Assembly (NCBI GenBank): GCA_963827645.1
Contig: CAWHBZ010000010.1
Coordinates: forward strand, 28,325-92,324
Source of the DNA: an uncultured beta proteobacterium
GTDB lineage: Bacteria; Pseudomonadota; Gammaproteobacteria; Burkholderiales; Burkholderiaceae_C
Length of the DNA: 64,000 nt
Reading direction: 5' to 3'
The first letter of the stretch is position 1; each line of letters starts with the position of its first letter. Shown one piece after another: positions 30,150 to 49,000 of the stretch. A program made the translations under genes and the position numbers. The notes below the pieces were generated by a model. The model made no database searches. It had not been told where the DNA came from and saw nothing but the letters and a program-made list of their open reading frames with translations.

Positions 30150-30610
30150 CCGGCGCTACGCAGGTCGGCGCCTTGCTGCAGGTGGCGGCGCAGGTTGGCG
30201 AAGCCCGCTTCGTAGACATCGCGCGCCACCATCTCGCGCAACTCGCGCTCGCGGCCGGGCGGCGTGGCGAAGCTCGACTCCCAATGCCAGAACGTGCGGT
30301 TGCCGTCGGTCACCGGCTTCAGCGTGACGGTGGCCACGTAGCGCTGCAGCGGCACCGTGGCCTCGACGATGCAGTAGGTGCTCTTGTGCTCGCGGTCGTC
30401 GAGCGTCAGCAGCTGCTCGCGGATGCGGTTGCCGTCATTCAGCGAGAAGTTGCGCACGCAGCCGACCTGCGACGAGGCTTCGTTGGCCTCGATGCGGCTG
30501 GTCTCGACCACGTCGTGCCACTGGTCGTGGCTGTTGAAATCGCGGATGACCGCCCAGACGCGCTCGATCGGCGCGTCGATGACGGTGGAGCGGACGACCT
30601 TCTGCAGCAT
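30150..30610 (-). CDS. SRPBCC (Bet v1 / polyketide-cyclase-like) family protein, 3' end approximate
   Basis: MLQKVVRSTVIDAPIERVWAVIRDFNSHDQWHDVVETSRIE..VGCVRNF..VATVTLKPVTDGNRTFWHWESSF.. Paralogous to the next gene. Confidence 0.6.
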
Positions 30611-31159: not shown

Positions 31160-32855
31160 CTATTCCTTGGTCGTCGGCGCCGGGGACGCCGGCGGCAACG
31201 CGGCGGTGCCCGACACGCCGGCCGTCAGCCGCTGGATGTCGCCCGACTCCAGGCCGATCTCGCGCAGCAACTGGTCGACGATCGGCGCCTGCGCGCGAAA
31301 ACGCAGCGCCGAGTTGACGACGCTGTCGGCGAAGCCGCCGTTGCTGCCGTCGCCGCCACCGCCGCCGCCGCCGGCCAGACCATCGACGTGCAGGATCTTG
31401 ATGCCCTCGATGCGCTCCATCGGCCGCACCGCCTCGCGGATGATCGCCTCGGCCTTGTCCACCAGCGCCAGGCGCAGCGCCGACGCCCTGGCCTCCGGCG
31501 ACAGCACGTTCTGCGCCTCGTTCATCAGGCGCATCGCGTCGGCCTCGATCTCGGCGCGCACCTTGGTGGCCAGCGACTTGATCTTGTCGGCGTCGGCATC
31601 GGCCTCGGCCTGCGCGCGGATCGCCGCGCCGCGGTCGGCGCTGGCCAGCTTCTCGGCCTTGGCCGCCGACGTGAGCCGCAGCGACTTCGCGCTCGGCCGC
31701 CTGCGCAGCGCCGATCAGGTCGATCGCCTTCTTGCGCTCGGCCATCTCGACTTCGCGCGCGGTGAACACCTTTTCTTCGGCCGATACGGTTAGCGCGCGT
31801 GCTTCTTCGGCCAACGTTTGCGCCTCACTCTGCGCCTTGCTCTCGCGCGCCACCGCGATCGCGCGCTGCTGCTCGGCCAGCTCCAGCGCCTGGCGGCGCG
31901 CCACTTCGGCGGCCTGCACCGCGCGCTCTTTCTGGATGCGCTCTTGCTCGACGCTCAGGTCGCTGCGGATGCGCGCCGCCTCGATGGTCTGCTTGGCGGT
32001 GATCTGCGCCTGCTCGGAGTCCTGCTCGCGCTGCGCGCGCTCGGTGGCCACCTCGGCACGCTGGCGGGCGCGCGCGACCTCCACCTCGCGCTGCTGGGTG
32101 AGGCGCGCGTATTCGCTTTCGCGGTCGATGTCGAGCGACAGCTTCTCGGCCTCGAGGTTCTTGTTGCGGATCGCGATCAGCGTGTCCTGCTCGACGTCGT
32201 TGCGCTGCTTCTTGCGGTGCTCGATCTGCTCGGTCAGCCGCGTCAGGCCCTCGGCGTCGAACGCATTGCTCGGGTTGAAGAACTCCATCGCGGTCTGGTC
32301 GAGCTGGGTCAGCGAGGCCGACTCGAGCTCCAGGCCGTTCTTGATCAGGTCGCCGGCCACCGTCTCGCGCACGCGCTTGACGTAGCTGCCGCGTTTTTCG
32401 TGCAGCTCTTCCATCGTCATCTCGGCCGCGGCGGTGCGCAGCGCGTCGACGAACTTGCCCTCGACCAGCTCCTTCAGCTGCTCGGGCTCGAGCGTGCGCT
32501 GGCCGAGCGTCTGCGCCGCCGCCGCCACCGCGCTCGGCTCGGCCGCCACGCGCACGTAGAACTCGGCGATCACGTCCACGCGCATGCGGTCCTTGGTGAT
32601 CAGCGCCTTGTCGCGGCCGCGTGCCACCTCCAGGCGCAACGTGTTCATGTTGACCGGGATCACCTCGTGCACGATCGGCAGCACCAGCGCGCCGCCGTCG
32701 AGCACCACCTTCTGGCCGCCCAGGCCCGTGCGCACGAAAGCGCGCTCCTTGCTCGAGCGCAGGTACAGCCAGTGCAGCAGCCAGACCACGATCGCGACGA
32801 CGATCGCCGCGACGATCAGGCCGAGGATGAAGGTTCCGAATTGGGCGCCTGTCAT
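31160..32855 (-). CDS. flotillin-like SPFH/band-7 domain protein (YqiK family), one frameshift
   Basis: N-terminal TM helix (FILGLIVAAIVVAIVVWLL), SPFH domain, and a long coiled-coil rich in E/A/R/Q. The C-terminal piece lies in frame 31160..31561. Confidence 0.75.
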
Positions 32856-32873: not shown

Positions 32874-33705
32874 CTATCGCTTGATCTGCGTGAAGCGGCG
32901 CGTCGTCTCGGTCAGCGCCACCTCGGTGGGCAGCCGCTCCATCGAGCTCGCGCCGTAGAAGCCGTGGCAATCAGGGCAGCGCGCGAGGATGAAGCTCGCG
33001 TCCTGCGGCGTGGCGATCGGCCCGCCGTGGCACAGCACGATCACATCGGATCTCACCGCCTTGGCGGCCGCCGCGTAGGCGTTGATCGGCGCCACGCAAT
33101 CGGCCAGCTTCAGTGCCGTCGCGGCGCCGATGGCGCCGCCGGTGGTCAGGCCCATGTGCGCGACGATGACGTCGGCGCCGGCCCGGGCCATGTCGCGCGC
33201 CTCCTGCTCGCTGAAGACATAGGGCGTGGTCAGCAGGTCCAGCTGCGTGCGCACGCGCGATCAGCTCGACCTCCAGGCCGTAGCCCATGCCGGTTTCTTC
33301 GAGGTTGGCGCGGAAGGTGCCGTCGATCAGGCCGACGGTCGGGAAGTTCTGGATGCCCGAGAAGCCGAGCGCGATCAGCCGCTGCAGCAACTCGTCGGCA
33401 ATCATGAACGGGTCGGTGCCGTTGACGCCGGCGAGCACCGGCGTGGATTTGACCACCGGCAGCACCTCGTGCGCCATCTCGCAGACGATGTCGTTGGCGT
33501 TGCCGTAGGCCAGCAATCCGGCCAGCGAGCCGCGCCCGGCCATGCGGTAGCGGCCCGAGTTGTAGATGACGATCAGGTCGATGCCGCCGGCCTCTTCGCA
33601 CTTGGCCGACAGGCCGGTGCCGGCGCCGCCACCGATGATCGGGGTGCCGGCGGCGATCTTGCGGCGCAAGCGGTCGAGGATGGTCTGGCGGGCGATGCGG
33701 GGCAT
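32874..33705 (-). CDS. phosphoenolpyruvate-hydrolase-like TIM-barrel protein (Tm-1 C-terminal-domain homologue), one frameshift
   Basis: [83 protein letters not shown].. then C-terminal ..[26 protein letters not shown]... Confidence 0.7.
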
Positions 33706-33721
33706 GGCGGTCTCGTCGGAT

Positions 33722-34942
33722 TCAACGCACCGCACGCACGGCGGACGGCGTGCTGGTGATTTCGCGCCAGGCCGCCACCAGCGCGTCGGCGAACGCTTCG
33801 TCGTTGATGTGCAGCGGCAGGCGCTTCAGCAAGCGGTTGGCGCCGCCGCGAAAGTGGCGCTCGATGGTTTCGAACAACACGCGGTCGGCCTCCGGGTCGT
33901 GGAACGCCTGTCCTGCGCGGTCGATCTGCGACACGCCACCTTCGGGGATCAGGAAGCGCACCGGCCCGCTCATCGCGTTGAGCTTGCGCGCGATGAATTC
34001 GCCGATCGCGCGGTTCTCGTCGACCGTGGTGCGCATCAGCGTCACCGTCGGGTTGTGGCGGTGCAGCTTGCGCCCCTTGAACCGCTCGGGCACCGAATCC
34101 CAGGGCCCGAAGTTCACCATGTCGAGCGCGCCGCACGAGCCCACGTAGGGCAGCGGGTGGCGCGCGAACACGTCCATGCGCAGCGGCCCGGCCGACAGCA
34201 CGCCGCCGACGATCTCGTCGGCGACCTCGGTGGTGGAGACGTCGATCACGCCGGCCAGCAGCCCGGAGTCGGCCAGTTTCTCCATCGACTGGCCCCCTAC
34301 GCCCGTGGCATGGAACACCAGGCAGTCGTAGTCGGCTTCGAGCCGCTTGGTCACCATCTGCACGCAGGTGGTGGTGACGCCGAACATCGTCAGGCCCAGC
34401 GCCGGCTTGCTGGCGCTGTCGCCGACCATCGGGTGCGCGATCATGCCGGCCAGCGCGTGCGCGGCGTTGGCGAGCACCTTCTCGCTGATGCGGTTGATGC
34501 CCGACACGTCGGTGATCGAATACATCATGCAGATGTCGCTCGGGCCCACGTAGGGCCGCGTGTCGCCCGAGGCCATGGTCGACACCATCACCTTCGGGCA
34601 GCCGATCGGCAGCGCACGCATCGCCTGCGTCGCCAGCGTGGTGCCGCCCGAGCCGCCGGCCGAAACGAGGCCGCCGACGTCGCGCCGGCTGAGCATGAAA
34701 CGCTCGAACGCGATCGCCATCGCGCTCACCGCGCTGCCGCGGTCGTTGGTGAACACCGCGGATTCGCCGTCGGGATGGTGGCGCGCCACCTCGCGCGGGT
34801 GCACGCTGGCCGGCGACGGCTTGCCCGACGTCGCGAGGTCCACCGTCACCACGCGCAGGCCGAGCTTCTCCAGGCACTGGCGCATGTAGAACAGCTCGCG
34901 GCCCTTGGTGTCGAAGGTGCCGGCCACGTAGGCAGCACGCAC
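33722..34942 (-). CDS. UPF0261 / Tm-1-like ATP-binding domain protein; start uncertain because the frame is open into livF
   Basis: ..[157 protein letters not shown].. ends at 33722. Confidence 0.7.
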
Positions 34943-35226
34943 GCTGCCGGTGGCGACGGGGAAGGCCAGCAGCTGCGCAGCCGGCCTGGCCGGCGGCGCG
35001 GCCGCAGGGGCGGCTGCGGAGAACGCCGGCTCGCGCGTGATGTCCGCCAACGGGGCTGCCGCGTCGCCGCTGTTCCAGCGGTTGAAGCCGCGCACCGTGC
35101 GCGGCGCCGCATCGTCGAGCGTCGGCGCGCCGTTGCCGAAGGCCCGCCGCACCGTCAGCACGCGCACGGTGTCGGGCGCCGCGGGCGGCGGCGCGGCGGC
35201 CTCGGCGTCCTCGTCGTCGTTGGCGC

Positions 35227-35960
35227 GCACGCCGAGCAGGCGCTCCTGCAGCTCGCGGTCGGCCGCCAGCGCCTGCGCCGGCATCTCGTGGGCGATGCGG
35301 CCGTTGACCATCACGCCGATGCGGTCGGCCACGTCGATCGCCACGCCGAGGTTCTGCTCGATCAGCAGCACCGCGATCTCGCCGCCGGCCAGCTCGCGCA
35401 GCGCCTGCACCACCTGCTCGACGATCAGCGGCGCCAGGCCCTCGGTGGGCTCGTCCATCACCAGCAGGCGCGGGTTCGAGCAGCAGCGCGCGGCCGATGG
35501 CCAGCATCTGCTGCTCGCCACCCGACAACTGCGCGCCGCCGTGGCCCTTGCGTTCGGCCAGCCGCGGGAACATCGTGTAGACGCGGTCGAGGTCGCGCCG
35601 GCGCCTGGCCACCAGGCGCAGCGTTTCGTCGACCGTCAGCGACGGCCAGACGCGGCGGCCCTGCGGCACGTAGGCGATGCCGCGCCGCGTGATCTCGTGC
35701 GGCGCCAGGCCGAGGAGCTCGTCACCGGCCAGCTTGACGCTGCCGGTGCCGTGCACGAGACCGGTGATCGCGTTGCACAGCGTGGTCTTGCCCATGCCGT
35801 TGCGGCCGACGATGGCGAGCACGCCGCGCTCGAGCGTCAGGCTGACGCCCTGCAGCGCGTGGCCGCGGCCGTAGTAGACGTCGAGGCCCTCCACCACAAG
35901 CATCGGGCCGCCCGGCTTGCTGCCGTCGTCGTTGCGATCGCGGGAGAACCAAGCCATCAA
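35227..35960 (-). CDS. livF: ABC transporter ATP-binding protein, LivF-like; frameshifted, no in-frame stop before the UPF0261 gene
   Basis: [50 protein letters not shown].. [15 protein letters not shown].. then [64 protein letters not shown], then about 95 aa of Ala/Pro-rich read-through. Confidence 0.7.
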
Positions 35961-36781
35961 TGCTTGCCCCCCATGTAGATCGCCTGCACCTGCGCGTCGC
36001 CCTCGATCTCGCCGGGCGAGCCGGTCTTCAGCACGCGGCCGTTGTGCATCACGGTCACGCGATCGGCCACGCGCAGCGCGATGTCAAGGTCGTGCTCGAT
36101 CAGCACGAAGCTCATGTGCGCCGGCAACGAGGTCAACAGCGCCACCAGCTCGCGCCGCTCGGCGGGCGACAGCCCGGCGGCCGGCTCGTCGAACAGGATC
36201 AAGCGCGGCGCGCCGGCCAGCGCCATGCCGATCTCGAGCTGGCGCTGCTGGCCATGCGCGAGGTTGGCGACCCGCTCGTCGGCGATGTGGCTCAGGCGCG
36301 CGCGCTCCAGCAGATCGCGGGTTTGCGCTTGCGACGCATGGCCTTCGCGCGGCCGCCAGAAACTGAAGCGGCCACTGGCCACGCCGCGCACCGCGAGGAA
36401 CAGGTTGTCGCGCACGCTCAGCTCGCGAAACAGCAGCGACGACTGGTAGGTGCGGCGCAGGCCCTTGCGGATGCGCTCGTGCGGCGGCAGCTCGGTGATG
36501 TCTTCGCCGAAGAAATGGATCCGCCCCGCAGTGGGCGGGAAGTCGCCGGTGACGGTGTTGAACAGCGTGGTCTTGCCGGCGCCGTTGGAGCCCAGGATCG
36601 CGTACTTCTGCCCCGCGGCCACCGCGAGCGACACGTCGTCGACCGCCCGCAGCGCGCCGAAGGCGCGCGTCACGTTGCTGAGCACGAGCGCCTCGTTGGC
36701 CGCCAGCGGCGCGTGCGCGCCGGCGGCCCGCGGCGACGCTGCGGCTCGACGCGACGCAGTGGGCGGCATCAATGTGGCCAT
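35957..36781 (-). CDS. livG: ABC transporter ATP-binding protein, LivG-like (intact)
   Basis: ..ILGSNGAGKTTLFNTVTGDF..LSVRDNL..LAHGQQRQLEIGMALAGAPRLILFDEPAAGLSPAE..IEHDLDIALRVADRVTVMHNGRVL... Confidence 0.85.
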   Translation of the reverse strand: MATLMPPTASRRAAASPRAAGAHAPLAANEALVLSNVTRAFGALRAVDDVSLAVAAGQKYAILGSNGAGKTTLFNTVTGDFPPTAGRIHFFGEDITELPPHERIRKGLRRTYQSSLLFRELSVRDNLFLAVRGVASGRFSFWRPREGHASQAQTRDLLERARLSHIADERVANLAHGQQRQLEIGMALAGAPRLILFDEPAAGLSPAERRELVALLTSLPAHMSFVLIEHDLDIALRVADRVTVMHNGRVLKTGSPGEIEGDAQVQAIYMGGKH

Positions 36782-36842
36782 GCGGTACTCGAATGACTCA
36801 TATGGACACCGAGGCGGCCGCCAGGCCGCCTCGGAAGTCGGG

Positions 36843-38073
36843 TCAGGGGCACGCCGGGACGTCGCGCGAGCCCATCTGGAACTCCTCTTTCTTCATGCCC
36901 AGCATCTGGTCGATGTTGTCGACCTTGCGGTGCACCTTGTTGAAGAGGTTGCCTTGCGAATCCTTCACCACCTCGGTGACGAACGTGGTGCCGATGGCCT
37001 GGCGGTTGCCGTCGAGCTGCACGTCGCCGGTGGGCGTCTTGAGCACCATCTTCGACAGCGCTTCGCGGTACTTGGCCTGGCCGCCGGAGAGGTCGCCCTT
37101 CACCGCATCGAGGCCGTCGAGCGCGGCCTTCATGTTGACGTAGTACACGTAGGCAAACAGGCTCGGGCTCGGAAAGCCGCCGGCCGACACCGGATAGCTC
37201 TTCTGGTAGTCGGCGACGAAGGCCTTCCATTCGGCGCCGTCATAGGCATCGGCCACCGGGCCGGCCGACAGCGTGCCCACCAGCGAGTCGCGGCGCTTGC
37301 CGCGGTAGTTCAGGATGTCCTGGCTGACCGTGATCGAGCCGCCGACGATCGGCTTGTCGCCGCCCGCGGCCTCGTACTGGTTGAGGAAGTTCACCGCGTC
37401 GGCGCCGCCCAGCACCACCAGCATCGCGTCGACATCCTTCGGGATCTTGGCGATCACCGAGGCGTAGTCCTTGCCGCCCAGCGGCACCCAGGCCTTCTCG
37501 GGCACCTTGCCGCCGAGGCGGCAGTACTCGGCCATGAAGCCCTGCACCTGCGAATACGGGAACGCGTAGTCCTCGGCGATCACCATCATGCGCTTGTAGC
37601 CCTTATCGAGCGCCGCCTTGCCCAGGCCGACCATCCACTGCGCACCCTCCATGTTGAAGCGGAAGAAGTTGGGGCTCGGGTTGACCAGCGTGGTCGCCTG
37701 TGCGCCCGAGCTGCCGTTGATGAAGGTGATGTTGGGCTGTGTCTTCGAATAGTCCTTGACCGCGATGCCTTCGCCGCCGGACAGCGGGCCGACCATGATG
37801 TCGACCTTGTCCTGCTCGACCAGCTTGCGCGTGGCGTTCACTGCAACATCGGGCTTGGCATCGGACGACGGCCTTGATGATCTCGATCTTGCGGCCGGCC
37901 ACCACGCCGCCGCGCTGCTTGACGGCCAGCTCGGCGCCGCGCATGCCGTCGGCACCGCCGGCGGCGAACGGCCCTTCGAGCGTGGCCAGCAGGCCGATCT
38001 TCACCGGCTGGCCCTGCGCCCAGGCGCCACCCATCAACGCGGTGGCGGCCGCGGCGCCGAGTATCGAACGCAT
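36843..38073 (-). CDS. ABC transporter substrate-binding protein, branched-chain amino acid (LivK/LivJ)-type periplasmic binding fold; frameshift near 37870
   Basis: Signal peptide MRSILGAAAATALMGGAWAQGQPVKIGLLATLEGPFAAGGADGMRGAELAV.. then ..KLVEQDKVDIMVGPLSGGEGIAVKDYSKTQPNITFINGSSGAQ..MVIAEDYAFPY..MLVVLGGADAVNFLNQYEAAG... Confidence 0.8.
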
Positions 38074-38093
38074 CCACACTCTCTTGGTCACTC

Positions 38094-39229
38094 TCACGGT
38101 TGTCTCCTTTGTTGGGAAGTCATGGCCTGGTTCGGCCCGAAGCGCGAGCGAAGCTTCGCCCACAGTCCGAGCAGGCCGTCGGGGGAAAACAGCACGATGG
38201 CGAGGAACACGCCGCCGATCACGAGGTTGAAGCGCTCGCGGTCGATCAGGTCGATGGCGAAGGTCTGCAGCAGCACGAAGGCGACGGCGCCGAGAAACGC
38301 GCCGATCGGATGCCGCATGCCGCCGAGCACGGCAACCACCAGGATGTTGATCAGCCACGAGGTGCTCGACCGATCCCGGCGTGATGAGGCCGTTGTACCA
38401 GACCAGCAGCACGCCGCCGACCGCGGCGATCAGCCCGGCCAGCGCATAGGCCGCGACGCGGTGCGCGACGACGTGGAAGCCCAGCGCCGCCATGCGCCGC
38501 GGGTTGTCGCGGATGCCCTGCATGGCGATGCCGAACGGCGCGCGCACCACCCAGCGCACGCAGCGAAGTAGCCGGCCAGCGCGCACGACCAGGCTCGAGG
38601 AAGTAAAACGGCAGCGGGTCGCGCCAGGCGACGCCCAGCACCTTGGGCGGATACACCTCGCGCAGGCCCTGGAAGCCGTTGAACACGCTGTAGTTCTGCA
38701 GCACCAGGTAGTAGAAGGCCACGCCGATGGCCAGCGTGATCATGATCGTGTAGATGCCCTCGGTGCGCACCGACAGCCAGCCGATCAGCGTGGCGCACAC
38801 GGTGGCGATGGCGATCGCGAACGGCACCGCCACCCACCACGGCCAGTCGAGGCTGATCTCGGTGCCGCTGCTGGTGCCGAGAATCGCCACCGCATAACCG
38901 GCCATGCCGGCCACCGTCATCTGCGCCAGCGACACCATGCCGCCGTAGCCGCCGAGAAAGGTGAGCGACAGCGCGATCAGGCCCAGCACCAGCGACTGCG
39001 CCGCCACCTGGAAGGTGAAGAACGGCGTGGCGACGAACGGAAAAAGCAGCACGAAGGCGAGCACGAACACGTGGCGCGGCTCGAGCGTGCGCCACAGGTA
39101 TTTCAACCAGCGCGGGGCGCCGCTGTCGGCGTACGGATCGGTCGGCGCGTCGGCGGCGCCACGGCGCGGCGCGCTCGGCGCACGGCGCAGCGCGCGCAGC
39201 GCGCGCATGCGCCGGCCGCGGTCGTTCAT
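38094..39229 (-). CDS. livM: ABC transporter permease, LivM-like, one frameshift
   Basis: ..SLVLGLIALSLTFLGGYGGMVSLAQMTVAGMAGYAVAIL.. and C-terminal ..AFVLLQTFAIDLIDRERFNLVIGGVFLAIVLFSPDGLLGLWAKL... Confidence 0.8.
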
Positions 39230-39257
39230 CGGCAGCGACCGCCAGTAGCGGCCGCGC

Positions 39258-40152
39258 TCATGCCGCCCTCCCCATGATCCCGCGCGGCCGAAACGCCAGC
39301 ACCAGGATCAGGATCACGAAGGTGAACACCACGCTGTAGGTCGGCGCATAGGCCAGGCCGTAGGTTTCGGCCAGCCCGAGGATCACCGAGCCGATGGCCG
39401 CGCCGACCACGCTGCCCATGCCGCCGACGATCACCACGATCAGCGAGGCCAGCAGCAGCCGCGTGTCTTCGCCCGGCACCATCGACAGCTCCACCGCGCC
39501 GATGACGCCGCCGAAGCCGGCCAGGCCGGCGCCGAGCATGAAGGTGATCGCGAACACGCAGGTTCACGTTGACGCCGGCGGCGGCGAGCATGCCGCGGTC
39601 GTCGACGCCGGCGCGGATCATCATGCCCACGCGCGTGCGGTTGAGCAGCCACCACAGGCCGATGCCGATGGCGATGCCGAAGCCGAGCAGGCTCAGCCGG
39701 TAGGCCGAGTACGCATTGATCAGCGGGATGCCGCGGATCGGGCCCTGCAGCCACTCCGGCGCCTCCATCTGATGCACCTGGCCGGTGAAGACCCACAGCA
39801 GCAGGTCGGCGATGACGATCGACAGGCCGATCGTCACCAGCGTCTGGCGCAGGTCCTCGCCCTGCATGTGGCGCAGCACCAGCAGCTGGATCAACAGCCC
39901 CGCCAGCGCAGCCGCGGCGAAGCCCGCGGCCAGCGCCAGCAGCCACCAGCCGGTGCGCTCGGCGACGATGAACGCGACGTAGCCGCCCAGCAGGTACAGC
40001 GAACCGTGCGCCAGGTTGACGTTGCGCATCAGGCCGAACACCAGCGTGAAGCCGCTGGCGACGATGAAGTACAGCGACGCCAGCGTCAGGCTGTTGAGCA
40101 GCGTCACCAGGTACAGGCGCGTGTTGTCGACCAGCGCCCACAGCGAGAACAC
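39258..40152 (-). CDS. livH: ABC transporter permease, LivH-like, one frameshift
   Basis: MFSLWALVDNTRLYLVTLLNSLTLASLYFIVASGFTLVFGLMRNVNLAHGSLYLLGGYVAF.. and C-terminal ..FAITFMLGAGLAGFGGVIGAVELSMVPGEDTRLLLASLIVVIVGGMGSVVGA... Confidence 0.8.
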
Positions 40153-40203
40153 GGCCAGCGGGCCGCCGATCAGCAGCCACAGCGCGATGCGCTGCGTTTC
40201 GGC

Positions 40204-41490
40204 TCACGCGGCGCGCTTCCCCAGGCCCGCTCGGCCGCGATGTCGGGCTGCTTGGCGAACACGCCGTCCTTCATCACCGCGAGCAAACGTTTCGGGTCGC
40301 GCAGGATCGCGAGGTTGGCCATCGGGTCGCCATCGACCAGCAGCAGGTCGGCGAGGTAAGCCTTCCTTGATCTGCCCCAGCTCGCCCGGCTTCATCATGA
40401 TCTGGCCGCCGTACAGCGTGGCGCAGCGGATCGCCTCGCCCGGCGTGAAGCCCAGGTACTTGACGAAGAACTCGAGGTCGCGCGCGTTCTGGCAGTGCGG
40501 CGTCATCGCGAAGCCGTAGTCACCGCCGAACAGGATGCGCACGCCGCGCTTGTGCATCGCCTTCAGCGATTCGACGGCGTGATCCCACTCGTGCTGGTAG
40601 CCCATGGCCACCGCCTGGGCGTGCGTGACGCCCCACTGCTCGGCCTCGTGCAGCATCGCGTACAGGATCGCGATGCCCGGCGCGACGAACACGCGGTCGC
40701 GCGCGGCTTCGAGCATGTCGAGCGTCTCGTCGTCGGTGTAGCTGGCGTGGTAGATCACGTCGATGCCGTGGCGCAGCGCCTGCTTGACGCTGGCCGCCGA
40801 GCGCGCGTGCGCGGTGCCGCGCTTGCCGCGCATGCGCACCTCTTCCATCGCGGCGGCCACCTCGGCATCGGTCATCCAGTTGGTGTCGGCCGGCGACTGC
40901 GGCGTGAAGTTGTCGCCCGACAGGTTGAGCTTGATCGAATCGACGCCGTACTTGAGAAACAGGCGCACGGCCTTGCGCATCTCTTCGGCGCCGCTGACGT
41001 TGACGCCGAAGCTGAACTCGGGAAACGGCAGGTGCGGCAACGTCTCGTCGCCGAGCGCCCCCAGCACCGTGATCTCCTGGCTGGCGGCGAGGTAACGCGG
41101 GCCCGGGATCTGCCCGGCATCGATGGCGTTGCGGATCACCACGTCGAGCCGCGGCTTGGCGCACGCGGCGCCGACGCACGACGTGAAGCCCGCTTCCAGA
41201 TAGCGCCTGGCGACCTTGGCGCACCACAACACGTGCTCTTCGAGCGGCATCGTCTGGATGCCGGCCAGCGTGGCCGCGTCGTTCCACGAGAAGTGCGTGT
41301 GGGCCTCGCACATGCCGGGCATCAGCGTGGCGCCGGCGCCGTCGATGATCGTGGCACCGGCCGGCGAGATCGCCGCGTTGCTGCGCCCGACCGCCTTGAT
41401 GCGGTTGCCCTGCACCAGCACGCTGCCGGGCACCGGGTTGCCGCCGCTGCCGTCGAGGATGCGCACGTTGGTGAACAGCGTATTGGCCAT
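40204..41490 (-). CDS. amidohydrolase-family metallo-hydrolase (paralogue 1), C-terminal frameshift
   Basis: MANTLFTNVRILDGSGGNPVPGSVLVQGNRIKAVG..IDGAGATLMPGMCEAHTHFSWND..PRLDVVIRNAIDAGQIPGPRYLAAS.. About 55% identical to the next gene. Confidence 0.8.
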   Translation of the reverse strand: MANTLFTNVRILDGSGGNPVPGSVLVQGNRIKAVGRSNAAISPAGATIIDGAGATLMPGMCEAHTHFSWNDAATLAGIQTMPLEEHVLWCAKVARRYLEAGFTSCVGAACAKPRLDVVIRNAIDAGQIPGPRYLAASQEITVLGALGDETLPHLPFPEFSFGVNVSGAEEMRKAVRLFLKYGVDSIKLNLSGDNFTPQSPADTNWMTDAEVAAAMEEVRMRGKRGTAHARSAASVKQALRHGIDVIYHASYTDDETLDMLEAARDRVFVAPGIAILYAMLHEAEQWGVTHAQAVAMGYQHEWDHAVESLKAMHKRGVRILFGGDYGFAMTPHCQNARDLEFFVKYLGFTPGEAIRCATLYGGQIMMKPGELGQIKEGLPRRPAAGRWRPDGQPRDPARPETFARGDEGRRVRQAARHRGRAGLGKRAA

Positions 41491-41500
41491 CGTCGTCTCC

Positions 41501-42802
41501 TCAGGCGGCCCAGCGTGTAGCCGTTGTCGTGCGTGACGCGGCGCGCACCGGCGGCGCGCGGTGGAACTCGCCGTCCTTCATCACCGCGAGGATGCGGTTC
41601 TTGTCCTGCAGCACCGTGATGTCGGCCAGCGGGTCGCCATCGATCAGCAGGATGTCGGCCAGGCAGCCTTCGCGGATGTAGCCGAGCTGCTTGCCCATCT
41701 TCATCATCGGCCCGCCCCACGCGGTGGCCGACAGCAGCGCCTCCATCGTGCTCATGCCGACGTGCTTGACGAAGTACTCCAGGTCCTTCGCATTGGTGCC
41801 GTGCGGCGTCCACGCGAAGCCGTAGTCGCCGCCGGGCAGGATGCGGATGCCGCGCTTGCGCATCGCCTTCATGCTCTCGATCGCGCATTCGAGCTCGCGG
41901 TGGTAGCCCATCTTGCGCGTCACTTCGGGCGTGAGGCCCCACTGCGACGCGTGGTGGCAGGTGTTGATCAGCCACGCCAGGCCGGGGGCGACGAAGTGCT
42001 CGAACTTGTGCTGCTCCAGCAGGTCGAGCGCCTCCTCGTCGGCGAAGCTGGCGTGGTAGATCACCTCGATGCCCTGCTTGACGCATTGCTTGATCGACCA
42101 GGTCGAGCGCGCGTGCGCGGCAACGCGCTTGCCCCAGGCCTTGGCCTCCTGCACGCAGACGGTGATCTCCTCTTCGGTGAACTGGCTGGCCTCGCTGGGC
42201 ATGCCGGTGATCGATTCGCCGGACAGGTTGATCTTCAGCGTGTCGACCCCGTACTTGGCGAACATGCGCACGCAGCGCCGCATCTCGTGCGGGCCGCTGA
42301 CGATGGCGCCGAATGCGAACTCGGGTTGCGGCAGATGCGGCTGCGTGGTGTCGCCCAGGCCGCCGGGCACCGTGATCTCCTGGCTCGCCGCCAGGTATCG
42401 CGGCCCGATGATGGTGCCGTCGTTGATCGCGTTGCGGATCACCACGTCGAGCCGCGGCTTGGCGGCCGCGGCGCCGACGCAGCTGGTCCAGCCCATGTCG
42501 AGGTAGCGCTTGGCGACCTCGGCGCACCACAGGATGTGCTCTTCCGGCGGCATGCGCTGGATCGCATCGAGGCTCGGCTGGTCGTTCCACGAGAAGTGCG
42601 TGTGCGCCTCGACCATGCCGGGCATCAGGAAGGCGCCGGCGCCGTCGATCATCTGCGCGCCGGCGATCGGCTGGCTGCGCTGGCCATAGCCGGTCTTGAC
42701 GACGCGGCTGATCTTGTTGCCCTGCACCAGCACGTCGCCGGTGAACGGCGCTTCGCCACCGCCGTCGAAGACCCGCACGTTGGTGAAGAGAACGTCGGCC
42801 AT
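41501..42802 (-). CDS. amidohydrolase-family metallo-hydrolase (paralogue 2, intact)
   Basis: MADVLFTNVRVFDGGGEAPFTGDVLVQGNKISRVV..IDGAGAFLMPGMVEAHTHFSWND..PRLDVVIRNAINDGTIIGPRYLAAS..HARS..ILPGGDYGF... Confidence 0.85.
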   Translation of the reverse strand: MADVLFTNVRVFDGGGEAPFTGDVLVQGNKISRVVKTGYGQRSQPIAGAQMIDGAGAFLMPGMVEAHTHFSWNDQPSLDAIQRMPPEEHILWCAEVAKRYLDMGWTSCVGAAAAKPRLDVVIRNAINDGTIIGPRYLAASQEITVPGGLGDTTQPHLPQPEFAFGAIVSGPHEMRRCVRMFAKYGVDTLKINLSGESITGMPSEASQFTEEEITVCVQEAKAWGKRVAAHARSTWSIKQCVKQGIEVIYHASFADEEALDLLEQHKFEHFVAPGLAWLINTCHHASQWGLTPEVTRKMGYHRELECAIESMKAMRKRGIRILPGGDYGFAWTPHGTNAKDLEYFVKHVGMSTMEALLSATAWGGPMMKMGKQLGYIREGCLADILLIDGDPLADITVLQDKNRILAVMKDGEFHRAPPVRAASRTTTATRWAA

Positions 42803-42842
42803 GTCAGTTGCTCCTGTCCTGTGCACTGCTGAGACCGAGCGG

Positions 42843-43380
42843 GGCAAAGCCGCGGGCGGGTATGCGCCGGCGCTCGAATGCGGCAGCCCCTCGCTGCGCG
42901 ACGGGTGCCCTGCGCTGCTCGGTCTCGTGGCCCGCCGAGAAACTCGCTATCGCTCGCTTCGGTCGCTGCGCTCAGACAATCTCGGCGAGTCAGAGGACGA
43001 AGCGCGCGCTGCGCGCGCGCGGCCACGAAGCTCCTGCGCTCGCTCGGCGCCGCACGATGTCGCTGCCGTCGCACACCCACCCACGGCTTTGCCGGCACCA
43101 CCGTGGCATGCGTCGTCGAACAGCAACGAGCGTTGCTGCGCGGTGGGCGGTGCCCGGTGGGGGCGACTTGTGGGGCGGCGAGAAGCGCAGGGCCGGGGTC
43201 GGCGCGCGCGAGCGCGCGCTTCCACTTCTGACTCGCGGCGATTGTCCGAGCGGAACGACCGCAGGGAGTGAAGCGAGTTTCGCCGCGCGACCCCGGCCCG
43301 AGCATCGCAGCGGAGTCGGCCTGCAAGGCCGACCGCCACAGTCAGGAGCCCCTGCCGGGTACCGCCCGCCGCGCCGCGCC
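42843..43380. mobile_element. MITE-like palindromic repeat element, copy B (~538 bp)
   Basis: Colinear and ~90% identical with 9909..10436 in the same orientation. Sits between the amidohydrolase start and the alpha/beta-hydrolase stop. Confidence 0.7.
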
Positions 43381-43408
43381 CACACCTCGCGCAAAGAGAA
43401 CATCCACA

Positions 43409-44206
43409 TCACCGCTGCGCCTCCAAGAACCCGCGCAACTCGCGCGCGCACTCCTCGGGCCGCTCCACCGGCGTCCAGTGGCCGCAGCTGCGGCAGCACC
43501 ACGACGCGCACCGAGCGCGCGCGGTGCAGCTTCTCGGCCATCGCGCGCACCGCCTGCGGCGGCGCGACGACGTCTTCGTCGCCGGTGACCAGCAGCACCG
43601 GCGCCTCGATCTGTTCCACCGCCGCTGCCGGCGCATCGGCCAGCGCGAAGCAGCTGCGCGCATAGCCATCGGGGTCCTGCCGCATCAGGCTCTCGCGCAC
43701 GAAGGCCACCGCCAGCGGCAGCCGCGTGCGGGTGTCGGCCGAGATCGACGCGTTGAGCAGCGCCAGCGTGATCTCGTGCATGCCGGCCGCGCCCTCGTGC
43801 TTCGCCTTCTCTCCGCGCGCGCGGATCGCGCTGCGCGCCGCATCGGGCGGCACGATCAGCGGGCCGAACAGCGCCAGGCTCGCCACCAGCTTGGGCGCGG
43901 CCACCGCCACGTGCTGCAGCACGATGTTGCCCATCGAGTGGCCGACCATGTGGGCGCGGCTGACGTTCAAGCCGCGCGCACGTCGACATCACGCAGCTCG
44001 GCATAACGCGCCATCGACAGCGGCCCCTCGGCGCGGTGCGAGCGGCCGCTGCCGGGCAGATCGATGCGCACCACGCGGTGCCGCGCCAGCGCCGGCATCA
44101 GCGGCGTGAAGGTGTTGGAGCTGCCGCCCAGCCCGTGCACGCAGACGACAGCAGGCCCCTCGCCTTCGTCTTCGACCGCGCAACGCTCGATGAATGTCAA
44201 TGCCAT
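43409..44206 (-). CDS. alpha/beta-fold hydrolase, multiple frameshifts
   Basis: MALTFIERCAVEDEGEGPAVVCVHGLGGSSNTFTPLMPALARHRVVRIDLPGSGRS.., nucleophile elbow in ..AHMVGHSMGNIVLQHVA.., C-terminal ..CGHWTPVERPEECARELRGFLEAQR*. Confidence 0.75.
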
Positions 44207-44214
44207 GGCGTTGC

Positions 44215-45096
44215 CTATTCGAACCGGTTCTCGATCGCCCCGATGCCGTCGATCTCGATGCGCACCACGTCGCCCGGGCCCAGCCATTTTGGTGGCGAGA
44301 AACCCATGCCGACGCCGGCCGGCGTGCCGGTGGCGATGATGTCGCCGGGCAGCAGCGTGATGCCGCGCGACAGGGTCTCGATCAGCGTCGGGATGTCGAA
44401 GATCATGTCGCGCGTCATTGCGCTCTGCCGCAGCTCGGGCGCGCCGCCGGCCGGCGTGACCCAGCCGCGCACGCGCGTGTCGCGGCCGTCGAGCTCGTCG
44501 GCGGTCACGATCCATGGGCCCATCGGGCAGAAGGTGTCGCAGTTCTTGCCGAGCAGCCACTGCTGGTGGCGCACCTGCACGTCGCGCGCGCTGACATCGT
44601 TGACGATGGTGTAGCCGAGCACGTGGTCCATCGCGCGCGCCTTCGTGATGTCGCGCCCGCCGCGGCCGACGATCACCGCCAGCTCGCTCTCGTAGTCGAT
44701 CTGCTCGGAGACCGCCTTGCCCGGCAGCCGCACGGTGTCGTGCGGGCCGATCACGGTCTCCGGGAACTTGCTGAACACCATCGGCCACTGGTGCTCCTTG
44801 GGCAGGCTGTCGCGGAACACGCTGCCCGACAGCTCTTGCGCGTGCGAGTGGTAGTTGCGGCCCACGCACCACAGGTTGCGCCGCGGGCGCGGAATCGGCG
44901 CGCGCAGCGTGATCGCATCCACCGCCACCCGCGGGCCGGTGGCCGCTGGCAGCGCCTCGCCCAGCGCGAGCGCCTCGATCAAGCGCAGCGCCGCGCCGCC
45001 GGCATAGTCCACCAGCAGCGGCGTGGCCTCGCGACCATCGGCCGACACGGTGCCCACATGCTGACGGCCGCCCCAGCTCCAGCTGGCGATGCGCAT
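44215..45096 (-). CDS. fumarylacetoacetate hydrolase (FAH) family protein (intact)
   Basis: MRIASWSWGGRQHVGTVSADG.. ..NLWCVGRNYHSHAQE.. ..IDYESELAVIVGRGGRDI.. ..GYTIVNDVSARDVQ..GKNCDTFCPMGPWIVT.. ..GDIIATGTPAGVG... Confidence 0.85.
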   Translation of the reverse strand: MRIASWSWGGRQHVGTVSADGREATPLLVDYAGGAALRLIEALALGEALPAATGPRVAVDAITLRAPIPRPRRNLWCVGRNYHSHAQELSGSVFRDSLPKEHQWPMVFSKFPETVIGPHDTVRLPGKAVSEQIDYESELAVIVGRGGRDITKARAMDHVLGYTIVNDVSARDVQVRHQQWLLGKNCDTFCPMGPWIVTADELDGRDTRVRGWVTPAGGAPELRQSAMTRDMIFDIPTLIETLSRGITLLPGDIIATGTPAGVGMGFSPPKWLGPGDVVRIEIDGIGAIENRFE

Positions 45097-45192: not shown

Positions 45193-45208
45193 TGAGACGT
45201 GCGTCTCA
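45193..45208. promoter_or_regulatory. inverted repeat TGAGACG-tg-CGTCTCA in the FAH/TetR divergent intergenic region, candidate TetR operator
   Basis: 7-bp perfect arms separated by 2 bp. Lies ~80 bp upstream of the TetR start and ~100 bp upstream of the FAH start. Confidence 0.4.
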
Positions 45209-45288: not shown

Positions 45289-45975
45289 CATGGCGAAGCT
45301 GAAGCTCAAGCTCACCGAGCCGCCCCGGCCGCCCGAGCGCGGCGTGCGCGCGGCCACCTTCCGGCTGCTGCTGGACACCGCCATCGAGATCATCCGCGAG
45401 GCCGGCCACGTGCCGTCGGTGGCCGAGGTGGCGGTGCGCTCGCAGGTGTCGCGCGCCACCGCCTACCGCTACTTTCCGAGCCGCAGCGTGCTGATCACCG
45501 CGGTGATCGACAGTTCGCTCGGTCCCGGTGCGCAGCTTCCGCACGCGCGCCACCGACGGCCGCGAGCGCGTGCGCGAGCTGTTTCGGCAGACCTTTCCGC
45601 GCTTCAAGGAGTTCGAAGCGCAAATGCGCGCGGCGCTGCAGCTCGCGCTGGAGCAGTGGGCGCTCGAGCGCGCCGGCCTGCTCGAAGAAGAGCCCTACCG
45701 GCGCGGCCACCGCGTGCGCATCCTGCAAGACGCCATCGCGCCGCTGGCCACCGACATGCCGGCTGCGGTGCGCGACCGCCTGCACCACGCGCTGTCGGTG
45801 ATCTACGGCATCGAGCCGTGGGTGGTGCTGAAAGACATCTGGGGCCTGCCCGACCGCGAGGTCGAACGGGTCGCGCTGTGGATGGCCGATGCGCTGATCG
45901 ACGCGGCGCTGCGCGAGGCGCAGCAACGGCACGCTCGCCGCGGGTCAAGCGATGACCCGCGCGCGCCGCGGCCGC
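45289..45975 (+). CDS. TetR/AcrR-family transcriptional regulator, 3' end approximate (no in-frame stop, frameshift inferred)
   Basis: MAKLKLKLTEPPRPPERGVRAATFRLLLDTAIEIIREAGHVPSVAEVAVRSQVSRATAYRYFPSRSVLITAVI.. (HTH), then a ligand-binding-domain-like continuation in frame 45528. Confidence 0.7.
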
Positions 45976-46020: not shown

Positions 46021-49000
46021 ATGGATCCACCCGGGGCGACGACCCGCATTCACATCCTCGGCGCGCCGCTGGTGGTGAAGGACGGCGCGCCGCAGCGCCT
46101 GCCGATCAAGAAGTCGATCGCGCTGCTCGCCGTGCTGGCCATCGAGGGCGCATGCACGCGCGCCAAGCTGGCCACGCTTGTTGTGGGACACGCTCGATGA
46201 CGAGGCCGCGCGGCGCAACCTGCGCCGCGAGTTGCACCGTCTGCGCGAGGCCGGCCTGCACGATGCGCTGGCCAGCAGCGACGACCAGGTGGCGCTGGCC
46301 CGCCACGTCGGCAGCGATGCCGGCGAGTTCGCGGCCGCGTTGGCGCGCGACGATCTCGAGGCCGCGGTGCGCCTGCACGCAGCGCCACTGCTCGATGGCT
46401 TCGACCTCGGCGAGTCGGAGAGCTTCAACGATTGGCTGGCCGCGGCGCGCGAGCGACTGGCGCGGCAGTGGCGCCAGGCGGCGGCCACCCAGGCGATGCG
46501 GCTCGAAGCCGCCGGCGACGTGCGCGCCGCGCTGCAGGTGCGCGACCGCCTGATCGCCGACGACCCGCTGCAGGAGTCGCAGGTGGTCGACGCGATGCGG
46601 CTGCACGCCACGCTCGGCGACCGCGCTGCCGCACTCGACCGCTTCGAGCGCTTGCGCAGCACGCTGCGCCGCGAGCTGGGCCTGGAGCCGCTGCCGCAGA
46701 CCGCCGCCTTTGCCGAGCGCATCCGCGCCGCCGAGCAATTGGCGCCGCTGGTGGCGCGCGGCGGCTCGGCCGGGCTGGCCCGCTTCGAGCCGCCGCTGAT
46801 CGCGCGCGAAGCCGAGCTGCAGCGGCTGCGCGAGAGCACCGCTGCGCTGACCTTGATCGTCGGCGAGCCGGGAGTGGGCAAGACGCGGCTGGCCGATGCG
46901 GCCACCGCCGACGCGCCCGCGCGCATGGTGCTGCGCATCGATGCGCTGGCGCGCGGCGCGCCGCTGCAGGCGGTGGCGGCGGCCTTGCGCCGCGCCCACG
47001 ATGAGCCGGCGGCGCGGCAACGCCTCGCTGCATTGCCGAGCGCCACGCAGCGCGAGCTGGCGCGGCTGCTGCCGGACATCGTCGGCGCCGGCGCGGGGGC
47101 AGCGACGATGCCGATCGCCGGCATTGCGCAGCCGCTTCTTCGACGCGCTCACCACCGCCTGGCGCGCCGCCGCCGACGGCGCCGCGATCTGGATCGACGA
47201 CCTGCACTGGGCCGACGACGCCACGCTCGAGTTGATCGAAGCGCTGGTGCACCGCATCGGCCGCGAGCGCGCCGCGGCCGGCGGCGCCCAGCGGTCGTGG
47301 CCGCGGCTGGTGGCGACGGCGCGCCGCCACGAACTCGCCGACCATGCGCCGCGCGCGCGAGGCGCTGCGCCGGCTCGAGCGCGCGCGGGCTGGTCGAGCG
47401 CATCGAGCTGCAGCCGCTTCGACCCCGGCGCCGACGCTGCAACTGGTGCGCACGTTGTCGGGTTCGCCGCGGGGTGCCAAGTTCGCCGAGCGGCTGCAGC
47501 GCGCGACCCAGGGCAACCCGTACTTCCTGCTGGAGACGCTGCGTTTCCTGTTCGACAGCGGCGAGCTCACGATCGACGCCCATGGCGCGTGGACCACGCG
47601 TTACGACGACGACACCGCCGACTATGCCGAGCTGCCGGTGCCGCCGACCGTGCAGCAGGCGATCGTCGAGCGCGTCGAGCGGCTCGGCCCGGCCGCGCAG
47701 CGCGTGCTCGAGACCGCGGCGCTGGCCGGCGACCCGTTCACGCTCGACGACGTGCAAGGCGCCACCGCGTTGTCCGAGTGGGAGGCGGTCGATGGCCTCG
47801 AGCGTGCGGCGCGTGGCGCAGGTGCTGGCCGCGGCGGCCGTCGCGCCGCGCAGCGCCTACCGCTTCGCGCACGACCTCGCGCGCCAGGCCCTCGAGCAGC
47901 GCCTGGGCGGCGAGCGCCGGCGCCTGATCCACCGGCGGCTGGCGGCGTCGATCGAAGCGCAGCGCGGCCGCCCCGACCGCATCGCGCACCATCTGCAAAG
48001 CGCCGGCGACGTGGCCGCCGCGGTGCCTTGGTGGTGGGCCGCTGCGCGCGCCGCCGAGCGCCTGTTCGCATGGCGCGAGGCACTCGCGCACTACCGTGCG
48101 GCGCTGGCGGCGGACAGCGACGTCGCGCGCCGCGTCGCCGCGCACCGCGCCTGTTATCTGCTGCACAAGCATCTGTACGCGACCCACGACATCCTGGCCG
48201 AGGCCGACGCGCTGCAGGCGCTGGCGCCGCGGCACGCGGCCGAGCCGCTGGCGCTCGAAGCGCTGCTGTGGCGCATCCGCGCGCACAACCTGGCGGAGCA
48301 CTTCGCACCGGCAGTCGCCGCCGCCGATGAGGCAATGGCGTTGCTCGGCCCTGCGACACCGCCGGCGTTGCGCCACGAGCTCAACCTGGCGATCGCGCAG
48401 ACGCGCCACGGCCTGGGCGAACTCGACGAGGCGGCGACGCGGCTCGACGCCGAGGCCGCGCACGGCAACGCGCTCGACGCGCCGCAGCGGCTGGAGCTGC
48501 ACCTGCAGCGCGCCAGCCTGGGCATGACGCGCGGCGACCTCGAGAGCGTGCACGCCGACGCACTCGAGGCGATGCAGCTGGCGCAGGCGCTGCACCGCAT
48601 CGACATGCACGGGCAGGCCGCCAACGTCATGGCCTACGTGCTGCACCTGCGGGGCGACACCGCCGCCGCGCTGGCCACGCTGACCGCTGCGCAGACACAG
48701 GCCGAACACAGCGCACTGGTCACCGTGCAGCGCTCGCTGCTGACCAACCTGGTCAAGCTGCACGTCGTGCTCGGCCACGGTGACGCGGCACGCCGGCGGC
48801 TGCAGCAGGCGATGCAGCTGTTCGCCGACGTCGACGACCCGTCGACACACGCGCGGCTGCGCAGCCGCGAGGTCGAGGTGGCCCTGCTCAACGGCGACAT
48901 CGGCGCCGCGTTGCGCGCCGCGCGCGCCGCGGTGGCGTTGCTCGAGGGCATCGGCAGCGCGGCCGGCACGTTCTGGCCGTGGTACCAACTGGCGCGCCTG

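Follow-up and report, generated by a model that had tools for sequence, protein, structure and literature searches.

A UPF0261 domain joined to an importer ATPase in a conserved but composite proteobacterial gene cluster

What does a Tm-1-like gene pair do beside an ABC importer and a set of hydrolases? The question is raised by a minus-strand gene array at positions 32874–45096 of a 64,000-nucleotide stretch of contig CAWHBZ010000010.1, from an uncultured beta proteobacterium (this whole stretch is called the window here). An initial annotation described the array as an uncharacterised catabolic island, comprising a FAH-family hydrolase, an alpha/beta hydrolase, two paralogous amidohydrolases, a complete Liv-type importer and a UPF0261/PEP-hydrolase-like pair, and proposed an amino-acid-like or cyclic-amide substrate. 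Pfam scans and tblastn place all of the named families in the window, in the stated order and on the minus strand, and no paper within reach of our literature search describes such a pathway. LivF and UPF0261, which had been listed as two genes, form a single fused gene (35957–33722), and this fusion is part of a cluster with a constant core and two interchangeable enzyme sets.

A UPF0261 domain fused to an importer ATPase

Because the window is ~70% GC, plain lists of open reading frames were swamped by spurious frames and uninformative. Genes were therefore read from third-position GC frame plots, and Pfam scans were run on stop-to-stop translations. The tblastn queries were the intact orthologues of locus L001, a metagenomic relative on a 51.5-kb contig with identical gene order and a fusion protein 85% identical to that of the window; a second intact metagenomic relative with the same order, L003, lies on a 543-kb contig (fusion 81% identical). 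From 45 kb downwards, Pfam and tblastn identify genes for FAH, the alpha/beta hydrolase, two amidohydrolases, two permeases, a binding protein, LivG, LivF-UPF0261 and PEP_hydrolase. Further downstream on the same strand come flotillin, SRPBCC and an SRPBCC–alcohol-dehydrogenase fusion, and then a glyoxalase-fold protein and a short-chain dehydrogenase/reductase (SDR).

The fused gene (33722–35957, minus strand) corresponds to a protein of ~745 aa, made up of a LivF/UrtE-like ATPase (~35231–35957), a 95-aa linker (~34942–35230) and a Tm-1/MarK-like UPF0261 domain (33725–34941). Past a +1 insertion at 35471, which lies inside the ABC_tran part, the ATPase frame stays open through the linker into UPF0261 and UPF0261_C with no stop, and the linker itself shows a strong coding signal in the frame plot. 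Intact orthologues of the fusion are present in both L001 and L003. The best 120 homologues of the linker plus UPF0261 are 75–86% identical, and almost all of them are 737–761 aa long and contain ABC_tran, UPF0261 and UPF0261_C. The ABC_tran–UPF0261 architecture is shared by at least six distinct clusters of a protein library grouped at 50% identity. Most UPF0261 proteins in the same library stand alone (~400–415 aa), and a few are fused to a TIM barrel in a plant-like manner (P0141).

A single high-scoring segment pair covers both domains in 50 loci, which means that the UPF0261 domain is joined to an importer ATPase in at least 50 bacterial genomes. The nearest named loci with the fusion are those of a Burkholderiaceae metagenome-assembled genome (MAG; 85%), Rhizobacter (78%), and Caldimonas and Pseudorhodoferax sp. 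Leaf265 (~75%). All of these are Burkholderiales, which places the window in this order. Fusions also occur in Alphaproteobacteria (Bradyrhizobium, Bosea, Mesorhizobium, Reyranella, Fodinicurvata and roseobacters) and in Gammaproteobacteria (Arenicellales and Granulosicoccus). LivF, UPF0261 and PEP_hydrolase genes are adjacent yet unfused in an Actinomycetes MAG (L065) and in Thermomicrobium roseum (Thermomicrobia). In L065, a gene for a PD40/WD40-like beta-propeller (10724–11650) sits between the separate LivF and UPF0261 genes.

The ATPase of the fusion keeps its Walker A (GRNGMGKTT), signature (LSGGEQQ) and Walker B motifs. In the close family, the linker contains invariant residues (V..TVR..., P..D...P..VRG..RW), and its R-W/PTRW motif, which recurs in more distant fusions, may serve for docking. 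An AlphaFold2 model of the fusion, based on 34 sequences that are all at least 77% identical, has a predicted local distance difference test score (pLDDT) of 66 and a predicted template modelling score (pTM) of 0.40, and the linker is predicted to be disordered. One divergent fusion lineage (P0124) has an ATPase without Walker A (GLDASQATELC) and an ABC_tran match of only 34 bits, together with a fully conserved UPF0261 part.

The fusion architecture is already visible in databases under automatic names. JGI calls homologues 'UPF0261 family/ABC-type branched-chain amino acid transport ATPase', and the 750-aa fusion of Variovorax paradoxus VAI-C is mislabelled 'ABC transporter permease'. Our literature search (UPF0261, Tm-1-like, PF09370, Mll9387) yielded two relevant papers, the one on MarK and a 2016 paper on plant origin, neither of which mentions the ABC fusion. 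We found no paper describing the fusion, the conserved core to which it belongs, or the two variants of the cluster.

A constant core and two alternative enzyme sets

A scan of one genome per species for related loci returned 80, and all loci were searched with proteins of L001 and of a Bradyrhizobium locus. A locus was counted as fused only where a single alignment covers both LivF and UPF0261, and 34 such loci have flanks of sufficient length. In all 34, LivF-UPF0261 is accompanied by LivH, LivM, the binding protein, LivG, flotillin and SRPBCC, and in 32 by PEP_hydrolase as well. Genes for FAH, alpha/beta hydrolase and amidohydrolase are found in only 12–13 of the fused loci, and 21 are without any of the hydrolases. 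The SRPBCC–alcohol-dehydrogenase fusion occurs in 13 loci, 12 of which also have hydrolase genes, and an AraC regulator is present in 19. Instead of the hydrolase set, 20–21 loci carry a second SRPBCC gene and a four-gene molybdenum hydroxylase of the xanthine dehydrogenase (XDH)/CO-dehydrogenase family. This version (L027, 17187–21554; also, for example, L022, L026 and L037) has the same core, the AraC regulator and a flotillin of ~975 aa.

The cluster is hence conserved but composite: a constant core, which includes flotillin and SRPBCC, is combined with either of two enzyme sets. The hydrolases are accessory, since the Tm-1-like pair and the importer occur without them in 21 of the 34 fused loci. 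What the window contains is the hydrolase-type version, found in about a third of the lineages, which has one or two amidohydrolases and, here, a divergent TetR gene. Hydrolase-type loci, with the full FAH-to-flotillin set syntenic, cover beta-, alpha- and gammaproteobacteria, and a complete cluster of this type lies on the chromid of V. paradoxus VAI-C (L084, CP063167.1, 1989366–2004824; INQ48_40485 to INQ48_40425). This synteny in three classes makes a functional link between the genes likely.

In intact relatives, neighbouring genes overlap by 1–4 nt or are separated by gaps of ~10–140 bp, from FAH through the SRPBCC–alcohol-dehydrogenase fusion. The notion of a conserved functional unit, implicit in the initial annotation, is supported by this tight co-oriented array, by the divergent TetR gene with its conserved palindrome and by the shared synteny of the full set; the hydrolases are an optional part of it. 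The annotation had also named, as a finding that would speak against such a unit, the occurrence of the Tm-1-like pair without hydrolase or transporter neighbours. This is partly what we see. Hydrolases are lacking in the 21 loci mentioned above, and stand-alone triads of UPF0261, PEP_hydrolase and SRPBCC, without a Liv-type importer or hydrolases, are found in Saccharopolyspora, Prauserella, Actinopolyspora and Bosea caraganae (L051–L054 have no nearby transporter).

Flotillin had been taken for a bystander. Its gene lies outside the 32874–45096 interval and, being present in 34 of 34 fused loci, is a core member. In the window it occupies 31160–32855 (minus strand; ~565 aa), is split by a +1 insertion at 31687, and encodes the Band_7 (PF01145) and Flot (PF15975) domains of a flotillin (SPFH) protein. 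Below it on the same strand are an intact gene for a 144-aa SRPBCC (Polyketide_cyc2) protein (30715–31149; Pfam and tblastn) and the gene for the SRPBCC–zinc alcohol dehydrogenase fusion (29140–30610; ~487 aa), which has several +1 insertions.

With the fusion located in culturable strains, namely V. paradoxus VAI-C, Pseudorhodoferax sp. Leaf265, Bradyrhizobium, Bosea, Mesorhizobium and Phaeobacter, the function of the Tm-1-type pair becomes testable.

Possible functions of the pair, the importer and the enzymes

The UPF0261 domain of the window matches both family models (PF06792, N-domain, 203 bits; PF23189, C-domain, 299 bits), and the L001 orthologue scores 603 bits on NF002673, for which the cut-off is 520. 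Its closest solved relatives are tomato Tm-1 (318 bits) and then MarK (215 bits, E 1e-62). MarK (Saro_1862 of Novosphingobium aromaticivorans, PDB 9MPY; 2025) uses ATP to phosphorylate acetovanillone and other phenolics, releasing ADP (PMC12624787). It is the only UPF0261 protein with an assigned activity that we found in the literature. With this ATP-dependent aromatic kinase, the initial description of the family as functionally uncharacterised no longer holds in full.

MarK and the window domain have in common the two-domain UPF0261 fold and the D-T-K lysine (MarK K16, Tm-1 K20), which is native to the window domain. Alignment to 9MPY indicates that the equivalents of Gly195, His219 (H-bond to the phenol oxygen) and His304 (stacking) are also kept, with TFDTKGRE/TQDTKEEE and VFHATG/VFHSSG as aligned motif pairs. 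MarK itself stands alone as a homodimer; its gene lies with the acvCDEF carboxylase and phosphatase genes, and it has neither a TIM-barrel partner nor a transporter. The window domain, by contrast, is fused to an ABC ATPase and differs in the pocket at His348, Phe283 and Ile285. Neither in the array nor in its flanks did Pfam scans detect carboxylase or phosphatase genes of the acvCDEF type. Given this genetic context, the fusion to the ATPase and the presence of a TIM-barrel partner, the domain is, as judged from sequence, not a MarK orthologue.

The partner is a PEP-hydrolase-like TIM-barrel protein of 276 aa (32874–33705, minus strand), 89–94% identical to that of L001, with a PF09370 match that is split into profile positions 2–149 and 146–267. 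Its gene begins 16 nt past the stop of the fusion gene; the barrel gene adjoins the UPF0261 gene, as expected for a Tm-1-like pair, and the barrel is not fused to UPF0261 here. In tomato Tm-1 and plant Tm-1-like proteins (PDB 3WRV–3WRY), UPF0261 likewise works with a PEP-hydrolase-like TIM barrel. There, the two are fused (PMC5028733) and the known role is viral replicase binding, whereas here the barrel has a separate gene and UPF0261 is joined to a transporter ATPase. Mll9387 of Mesorhizobium japonicum (PDB 2P10) matches the barrel orthologue over its full length (E 1.6e-120); it is without an assigned function, and the UPF0261 partner in Mesorhizobium is stand-alone. UPF0261 thus has two fusion partners, the barrel in plants and the ATPase in the window, and by Rosetta-stone logic UPF0261, barrel and ATPase probably act as one complex.

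The importer has the composition of the HAAT family (Liv/Urt type), with two BPD_transp_2 permeases, two ABC_tran ATPases and a Peripla_BP_6 protein, all intact in the orthologues. In the window, the minus strand encodes a LivH/UrtB-like permease (39258–40190; PF02653 split over two frames, profile positions 2–176 and 179–269), a LivM/UrtC-like permease (38094–39250; PF02653 fragments in three frames), a periplasmic binding protein of ~417 aa (36843–38097; Peripla_BP_6, from Pfam and tblastn) and an intact LivG/UrtD-like ATPase of 274 aa (35957–36781; PF00005, 109 bits; 86% identical to L001), in addition to the fused ATPase. LivHMGF/LivJ and UrtABCDE have the same subunit set, and both ATPases of the window type have intact Walker A, signature and Walker B motifs. 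The differences are that one ATPase bears a 500-aa extension here, and that the binding protein is nearer to the 4evq/4ey3 group than to the solved urea or Leu/Ile/Val binders. No importer subunit reaches the NCBIfam equivalog cut-off of a Liv or Urt model (score/cut-off: UrtB 196/250, UrtC 118/296, UrtA 80/493, UrtD 207/304, UrtE 208/286; Liv models lower still). For the binding protein, the best solved relatives are 4zpj, followed by 4evq, 4ey3, 4evs and 4f06, and urea and Leu/Ile/Val binders score lower. We take at least 4evq and 4ey3 to be binders of benzoate derivatives (benzoate/4-hydroxybenzoate) from Rhodopseudomonas palustris. RPA0668 and RPA0985 bind benzoate and 4-hydroxybenzoate (PMC6079105).

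The first gene of the operon (44215–45096, minus strand) is intact and encodes a FAH-family protein of 293 aa, with an FAA_hydrolase C-terminal domain (PF01557, 235 bits) and 88% identity to the L001 orthologue over 293 aa. It is nearest to HpaG/HpcE-type decarboxylase-isomerases and diketo-acid hydrolases (best solved relatives 8sky, 6iym and HpaG/HpcE) and scores below the NCBIfam equivalog cut-offs (LRA6, 167 versus 500; HpaG-C, 159 versus 276). The alpha/beta-fold hydrolase (43409–44206, minus strand; ~264 aa) is PcaD enol-lactonase-like, with 3-oxoadipate enol-lactonase PcaD and 2xua as its nearest relatives; its Abhydrolase_1 and Hydrolase_4 matches are split over frames, and tblastn finds it in three. 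Amidohydrolase 1 (41501–42802, minus strand; 433 aa, PF01979) is intact and 94% identical to L001, and amidohydrolase 2 (approximately 40170–41490, minus strand) matches Amidohydro_1. The two are paralogues, 58% identical to each other, close to the ~55% given initially. Their best solved relatives are carboxypeptidases of the Cc2672/Sgx9260 type and ochratoxin amidases (PDB 3MTW, 3BE7, 8IHQ and 4C5Y; E 1e-30 to 1e-42), and their top NCBIfam model is NF051886 (Cc2672/Xaa-Pro dipeptidase), on which they score 225 and 232 bits against an equivalog cut-off of 500. The Cc2672 arginine carboxypeptidase/Xaa-Pro dipeptidase/ochratoxin-amidase group cleaves linear amides beside a C-terminal amino acid. 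Dihydroorotase and chlorohydrolase-type models gave only weak partial matches at the N-terminus, and no hydantoinase or dihydropyrimidinase model was among the matches listed. Since no catabolic or transporter protein of the cluster reached an NCBIfam equivalog cut-off, specific enzyme names cannot be assigned.

The reading that we favour, and hold tentatively, is that uptake is coupled to ATP-dependent phosphorylation of a hydroxylated aromatic or otherwise hydrophobic compound, or of a product derived from it. A substrate of this kind is suggested by the relatives of the binding protein, by the constant presence of SRPBCC proteins, by the molybdenum hydroxylase that takes the place of the hydrolases in other loci, and by the kinship of FAH and the alpha/beta hydrolase to HpaG/HpcE and PcaD, which process aromatic ring-fission products. 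The importer would take up the compound, in the hydrolase variant probably as an amide or ester conjugate; an amide conjugate is suggested by the kinship of the amidohydrolases to Cc2672 and the ochratoxin amidases. The tethered UPF0261 domain would then phosphorylate the incoming molecule or its product with ATP, thereby trapping or activating it, and the TIM barrel would act on the phosphorylated species. Amidohydrolases, alpha/beta hydrolase and FAH would contribute amide cleavage, ester/lactone cleavage, and beta-diketo-acid (C–C) cleavage or decarboxylation, and TetR would repress the operon until the substrate is present. The descriptive part of our results is far firmer than this chemistry.

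A number of observations weigh against the scheme. No member of the fused family is known to have been studied. MarK acts alone, without a TIM barrel or transporter, and three residues of its pocket are replaced in the window domain (His348 by Ile, Phe283 by Met and Ile285 by Asn). The permeases and ATPases score best on urea (Urt) models and next on Liv models, which points to small amides rather than aromatics. For 4zpj, the top solved match of the binding protein, we know of no ligand. The AlphaFold2 model of the fusion shows no confident packing between the domains, as its pTM indicates. In this genome, a 540-bp repeat within the array (described below) could interrupt co-transcription or affect read-through, and several genes contain +1 insertions that are very probably, though not provably, errors. 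Finally, C-terminal extra domains of importer ATPases are usually regulatory, as in MalK, MetN and OpuA, and a barrel relative in Bosea caraganae occurs in a regulatory protein.

These last points bear on the main rival, which we consider rather unlikely: that UPF0261 and the barrel form a ligand- or ATP-sensing module that gates the importer, by trans-inhibition or activation, and are not pathway enzymes. The UPF0261 domain does follow an importer ATPase at its C-terminal end, from which it is separated by a long flexible linker. MalK, MetN, OpuAA and ModC similarly have an extra C-terminal domain on the nucleotide-binding subunit. Their additions are small ligand-binding folds (TOBE, ACT-like and CBS), whereas here a 400-aa ATP-binding kinase-type domain is attached through a 95-aa predicted-disordered tether to one of the two ATPases. 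In B. caraganae (L058, 12669–14543, minus strand), a PEP_hydrolase TIM barrel forms the N-terminal domain of a sigma-54 enhancer-binding protein, which by analogy suggests sensing rather than catalysis; the gene adjoins a stand-alone UPF0261/PEP_hydrolase/SRPBCC triad, a sugar-type ABC transporter and ThuA. An old name of the family, 'TIM-barrel signal transduction protein' (PMC5028733), and the constancy of the core while catabolic enzymes are swapped would also be in line with regulation. On the other side, MarK demonstrates kinase catalysis for the fold, and the window domain shares with it the lysine of the ATP site and two histidines that contact the substrate. Moreover, UPF0261, barrel and SRPBCC exist without a nearby transporter (L051–L054), so the pair has a role that does not depend on transport. 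Given these features, the domain is more likely an enzyme than a pure regulator.

The idea of uptake-coupled phosphorylation can be taken further, to a proposal that we regard as unlikely in this strong form: the fusion may define a class of ABC importers that carry their own kinase for small molecules. Phosphorylation would take place as the substrate leaves the translocation path, which would be the ABC counterpart of group translocation. The phospho-intermediate would be processed by the barrel, and flotillin and SRPBCC would organise the membrane assembly. Coupling of a kinase to transport would, if true, give ABC importers a novel means of trapping their substrates, and the cluster would be one of the few cases in which a flotillin has a defined partner in an operon. 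If the importer does have a built-in kinase, the biochemical role that plant Tm-1 had ancestrally would come to light in the bacterial system.

The pathway first proposed, for an amino-acid-like or cyclic-amide compound (lactam, hydantoin or pyrimidine), would have the hydrolases as its defining enzymes and the Tm-1-like pair as one step. Two amidohydrolases, an alpha/beta hydrolase and FAH are indeed packed tightly with a Liv/Urt-type importer, the full set is syntenic across three proteobacterial classes, and Urt-type models are the top matches for the membrane and ATPase subunits. However, 21 of the 34 related loci lack every hydrolase and have the molybdenum hydroxylase instead, the amidohydrolases fall in the linear-amide Cc2672/prolidase/ochratoxinase group, and the binding protein is nearer to benzoate-type than to Leu/Ile/Val or urea binders. 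The proposed substrate has gained no positive support from our analysis, and we judge this pathway improbable.

A further alternative, in our estimation highly improbable, is that the substrates are N-acyl amino acids or ring-opened N-acyl-homoserine lactones (AHLs). The steps would be lactone opening by the alpha/beta hydrolase, deacylation by the amidohydrolases and phosphorylation of the free hydroxyl by the kinase domain, with SRPBCC and flotillin serving the lipid-like part. Cc2672-type amidohydrolases act on N-acyl or C-terminal amino-acid amides, and SRPBCC and flotillin suggest an amphipathic ligand. The same cluster is present on the chromid of V. paradoxus VAI-C, a quorum-quenching strain isolated for growth on acyl-homoserine lactones (PMC8142574). 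This may be a coincidence, though, as many Burkholderiales and Alphaproteobacteria that are not known to break down such signals also have the cluster. Nor are the known AHL acylases and lactonases members of the enzyme families seen here.

Reading frames, control region and flanks in the window

Frame breaks were mapped by tblastn of L001 proteins and by DNA alignment of the window with L001. Within 32874–45096, we count at least ten single-base insertions, which break 7 of the 11 genes of the interval: the alpha/beta hydrolase (43993, 43969 and 43491), amidohydrolase 2 (40357), LivH (39560), LivM (~38590 and 38368), the binding protein (37870), LivF-UPF0261 (35471) and PEP_hydrolase (33244). 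FAH, amidohydrolase 1 and LivG are the intact genes of the interval. These breaks had not been noticed initially, and the importer that was called complete has, as written, four of its five genes frame-broken. One more +1 insertion lies in the TetR gene at 45521. Altogether, ~20 frame-breaking events are seen in coding DNA between 27.9 and 46 kb, every one of them a +1 outside homopolymers. A class II (B12-dependent type) ribonucleotide reductase gene (23429–26352, minus strand), which is colinear with L001 and encodes 976 aa in relatives, has ~17 further +1 insertions. Over 23429–46000, where the window is colinear with L001 at 85–89% identity, there are ~37 single-base insertions overall. 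They are unevenly spread: the ribonucleotide reductase gene has ~6 per kb and the cluster ~1 per kb, whereas FAH, amidohydrolase 1 and LivG have none. To either side of each break, amino-acid identity to L001 is 80–96%, and neither in-frame stops nor deletions are seen.

Because the insertions are all +1, lie outside homopolymers, are flanked by high identity on both sides, are unaccompanied by stops and strike the ribonucleotide reductase gene harder, they are very probably sequencing or assembly errors, from insertion-prone reads or an unpolished assembly. We infer that the cluster genes are functional in the organism. That the frameshifts are real, and the cluster a decaying pseudogene array with a dead pathway, would fit the seven broken genes and is nonetheless extremely improbable: decay would bring deletions and stop codons, where only +1 insertions with equal identity on either side are seen, and would spare a normally indispensable gene such as that of the class II ribonucleotide reductase. 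One consequence is that the window copy is too poor in sequence quality to serve as a family reference.

The divergent TetR gene and the palindrome noted in the initial annotation are both present. The gene (approximately 45290–45960, plus strand; 3' end uncertain) encodes an N-terminal helix–turn–helix (TetR_N, 25 bits against a cut-off of 24), and tblastn gives 70–85% identity to the L001 and L050 orthologues, with a frame change at 45525. It is separated from FAH by a 193-bp intergenic region that contains the palindrome TGAGAC-GTGC-GTCTCA (45193–45208). The arms (TGAGAC-N4-GTCTCA) are identical in the window, L001 and L003, and the 4-nt centre varies; a TATGAT-containing block upstream of the palindrome is also conserved. 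Since the arms are constant while the four central bases differ, the palindrome fits a candidate TetR operator overlapping the operon promoter. A promoter scan returned no sigma-70-like sites. Terminator-like hairpins inside the array are at chance level (8 versus 6.4 expected), and one of them is the operator palindrome. In V. paradoxus VAI-C, no TetR gene is annotated upstream of the cluster.

The genes for the alpha/beta hydrolase and amidohydrolase 1 are separated by the non-coding 540-bp repeat (42843–43380), which resembles a miniature inverted-repeat transposable element. It has long imperfect internal inverted repeats (arms 42895–43010 and 43211–43325), and a second copy at 9909–10436 is 92.6% identical over 539 bp. 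The repeat is missing from L001 and L003, where the gap is 14–18 bp, and from all 84 fetched loci. It has no Rfam match, and the Rfam scan of 27–47 kb as a whole gave zero matches.

We considered and rejected a mobile, horizontally acquired island. GC content is flat across the region (0.68–0.72), no integrase was seen around the cluster, and synteny with L001 extends past the cluster, through the SDR, glyoxalase and ribonucleotide reductase genes. The word 'island' fits only in the sense of a gene cluster. In the flanks are large BTAD/AAA/TPR-type regulators and a Ser/Thr protein kinase, at 46079–49468 (plus strand), 19050–21206 (plus strand) and 58588–60840 (minus strand), with frame changes there too. 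The rest of the window resembles ordinary chromosome and includes genes for peptidase M16, a sigma-54 activator, an AMP-binding enzyme, YaeQ and RND efflux.

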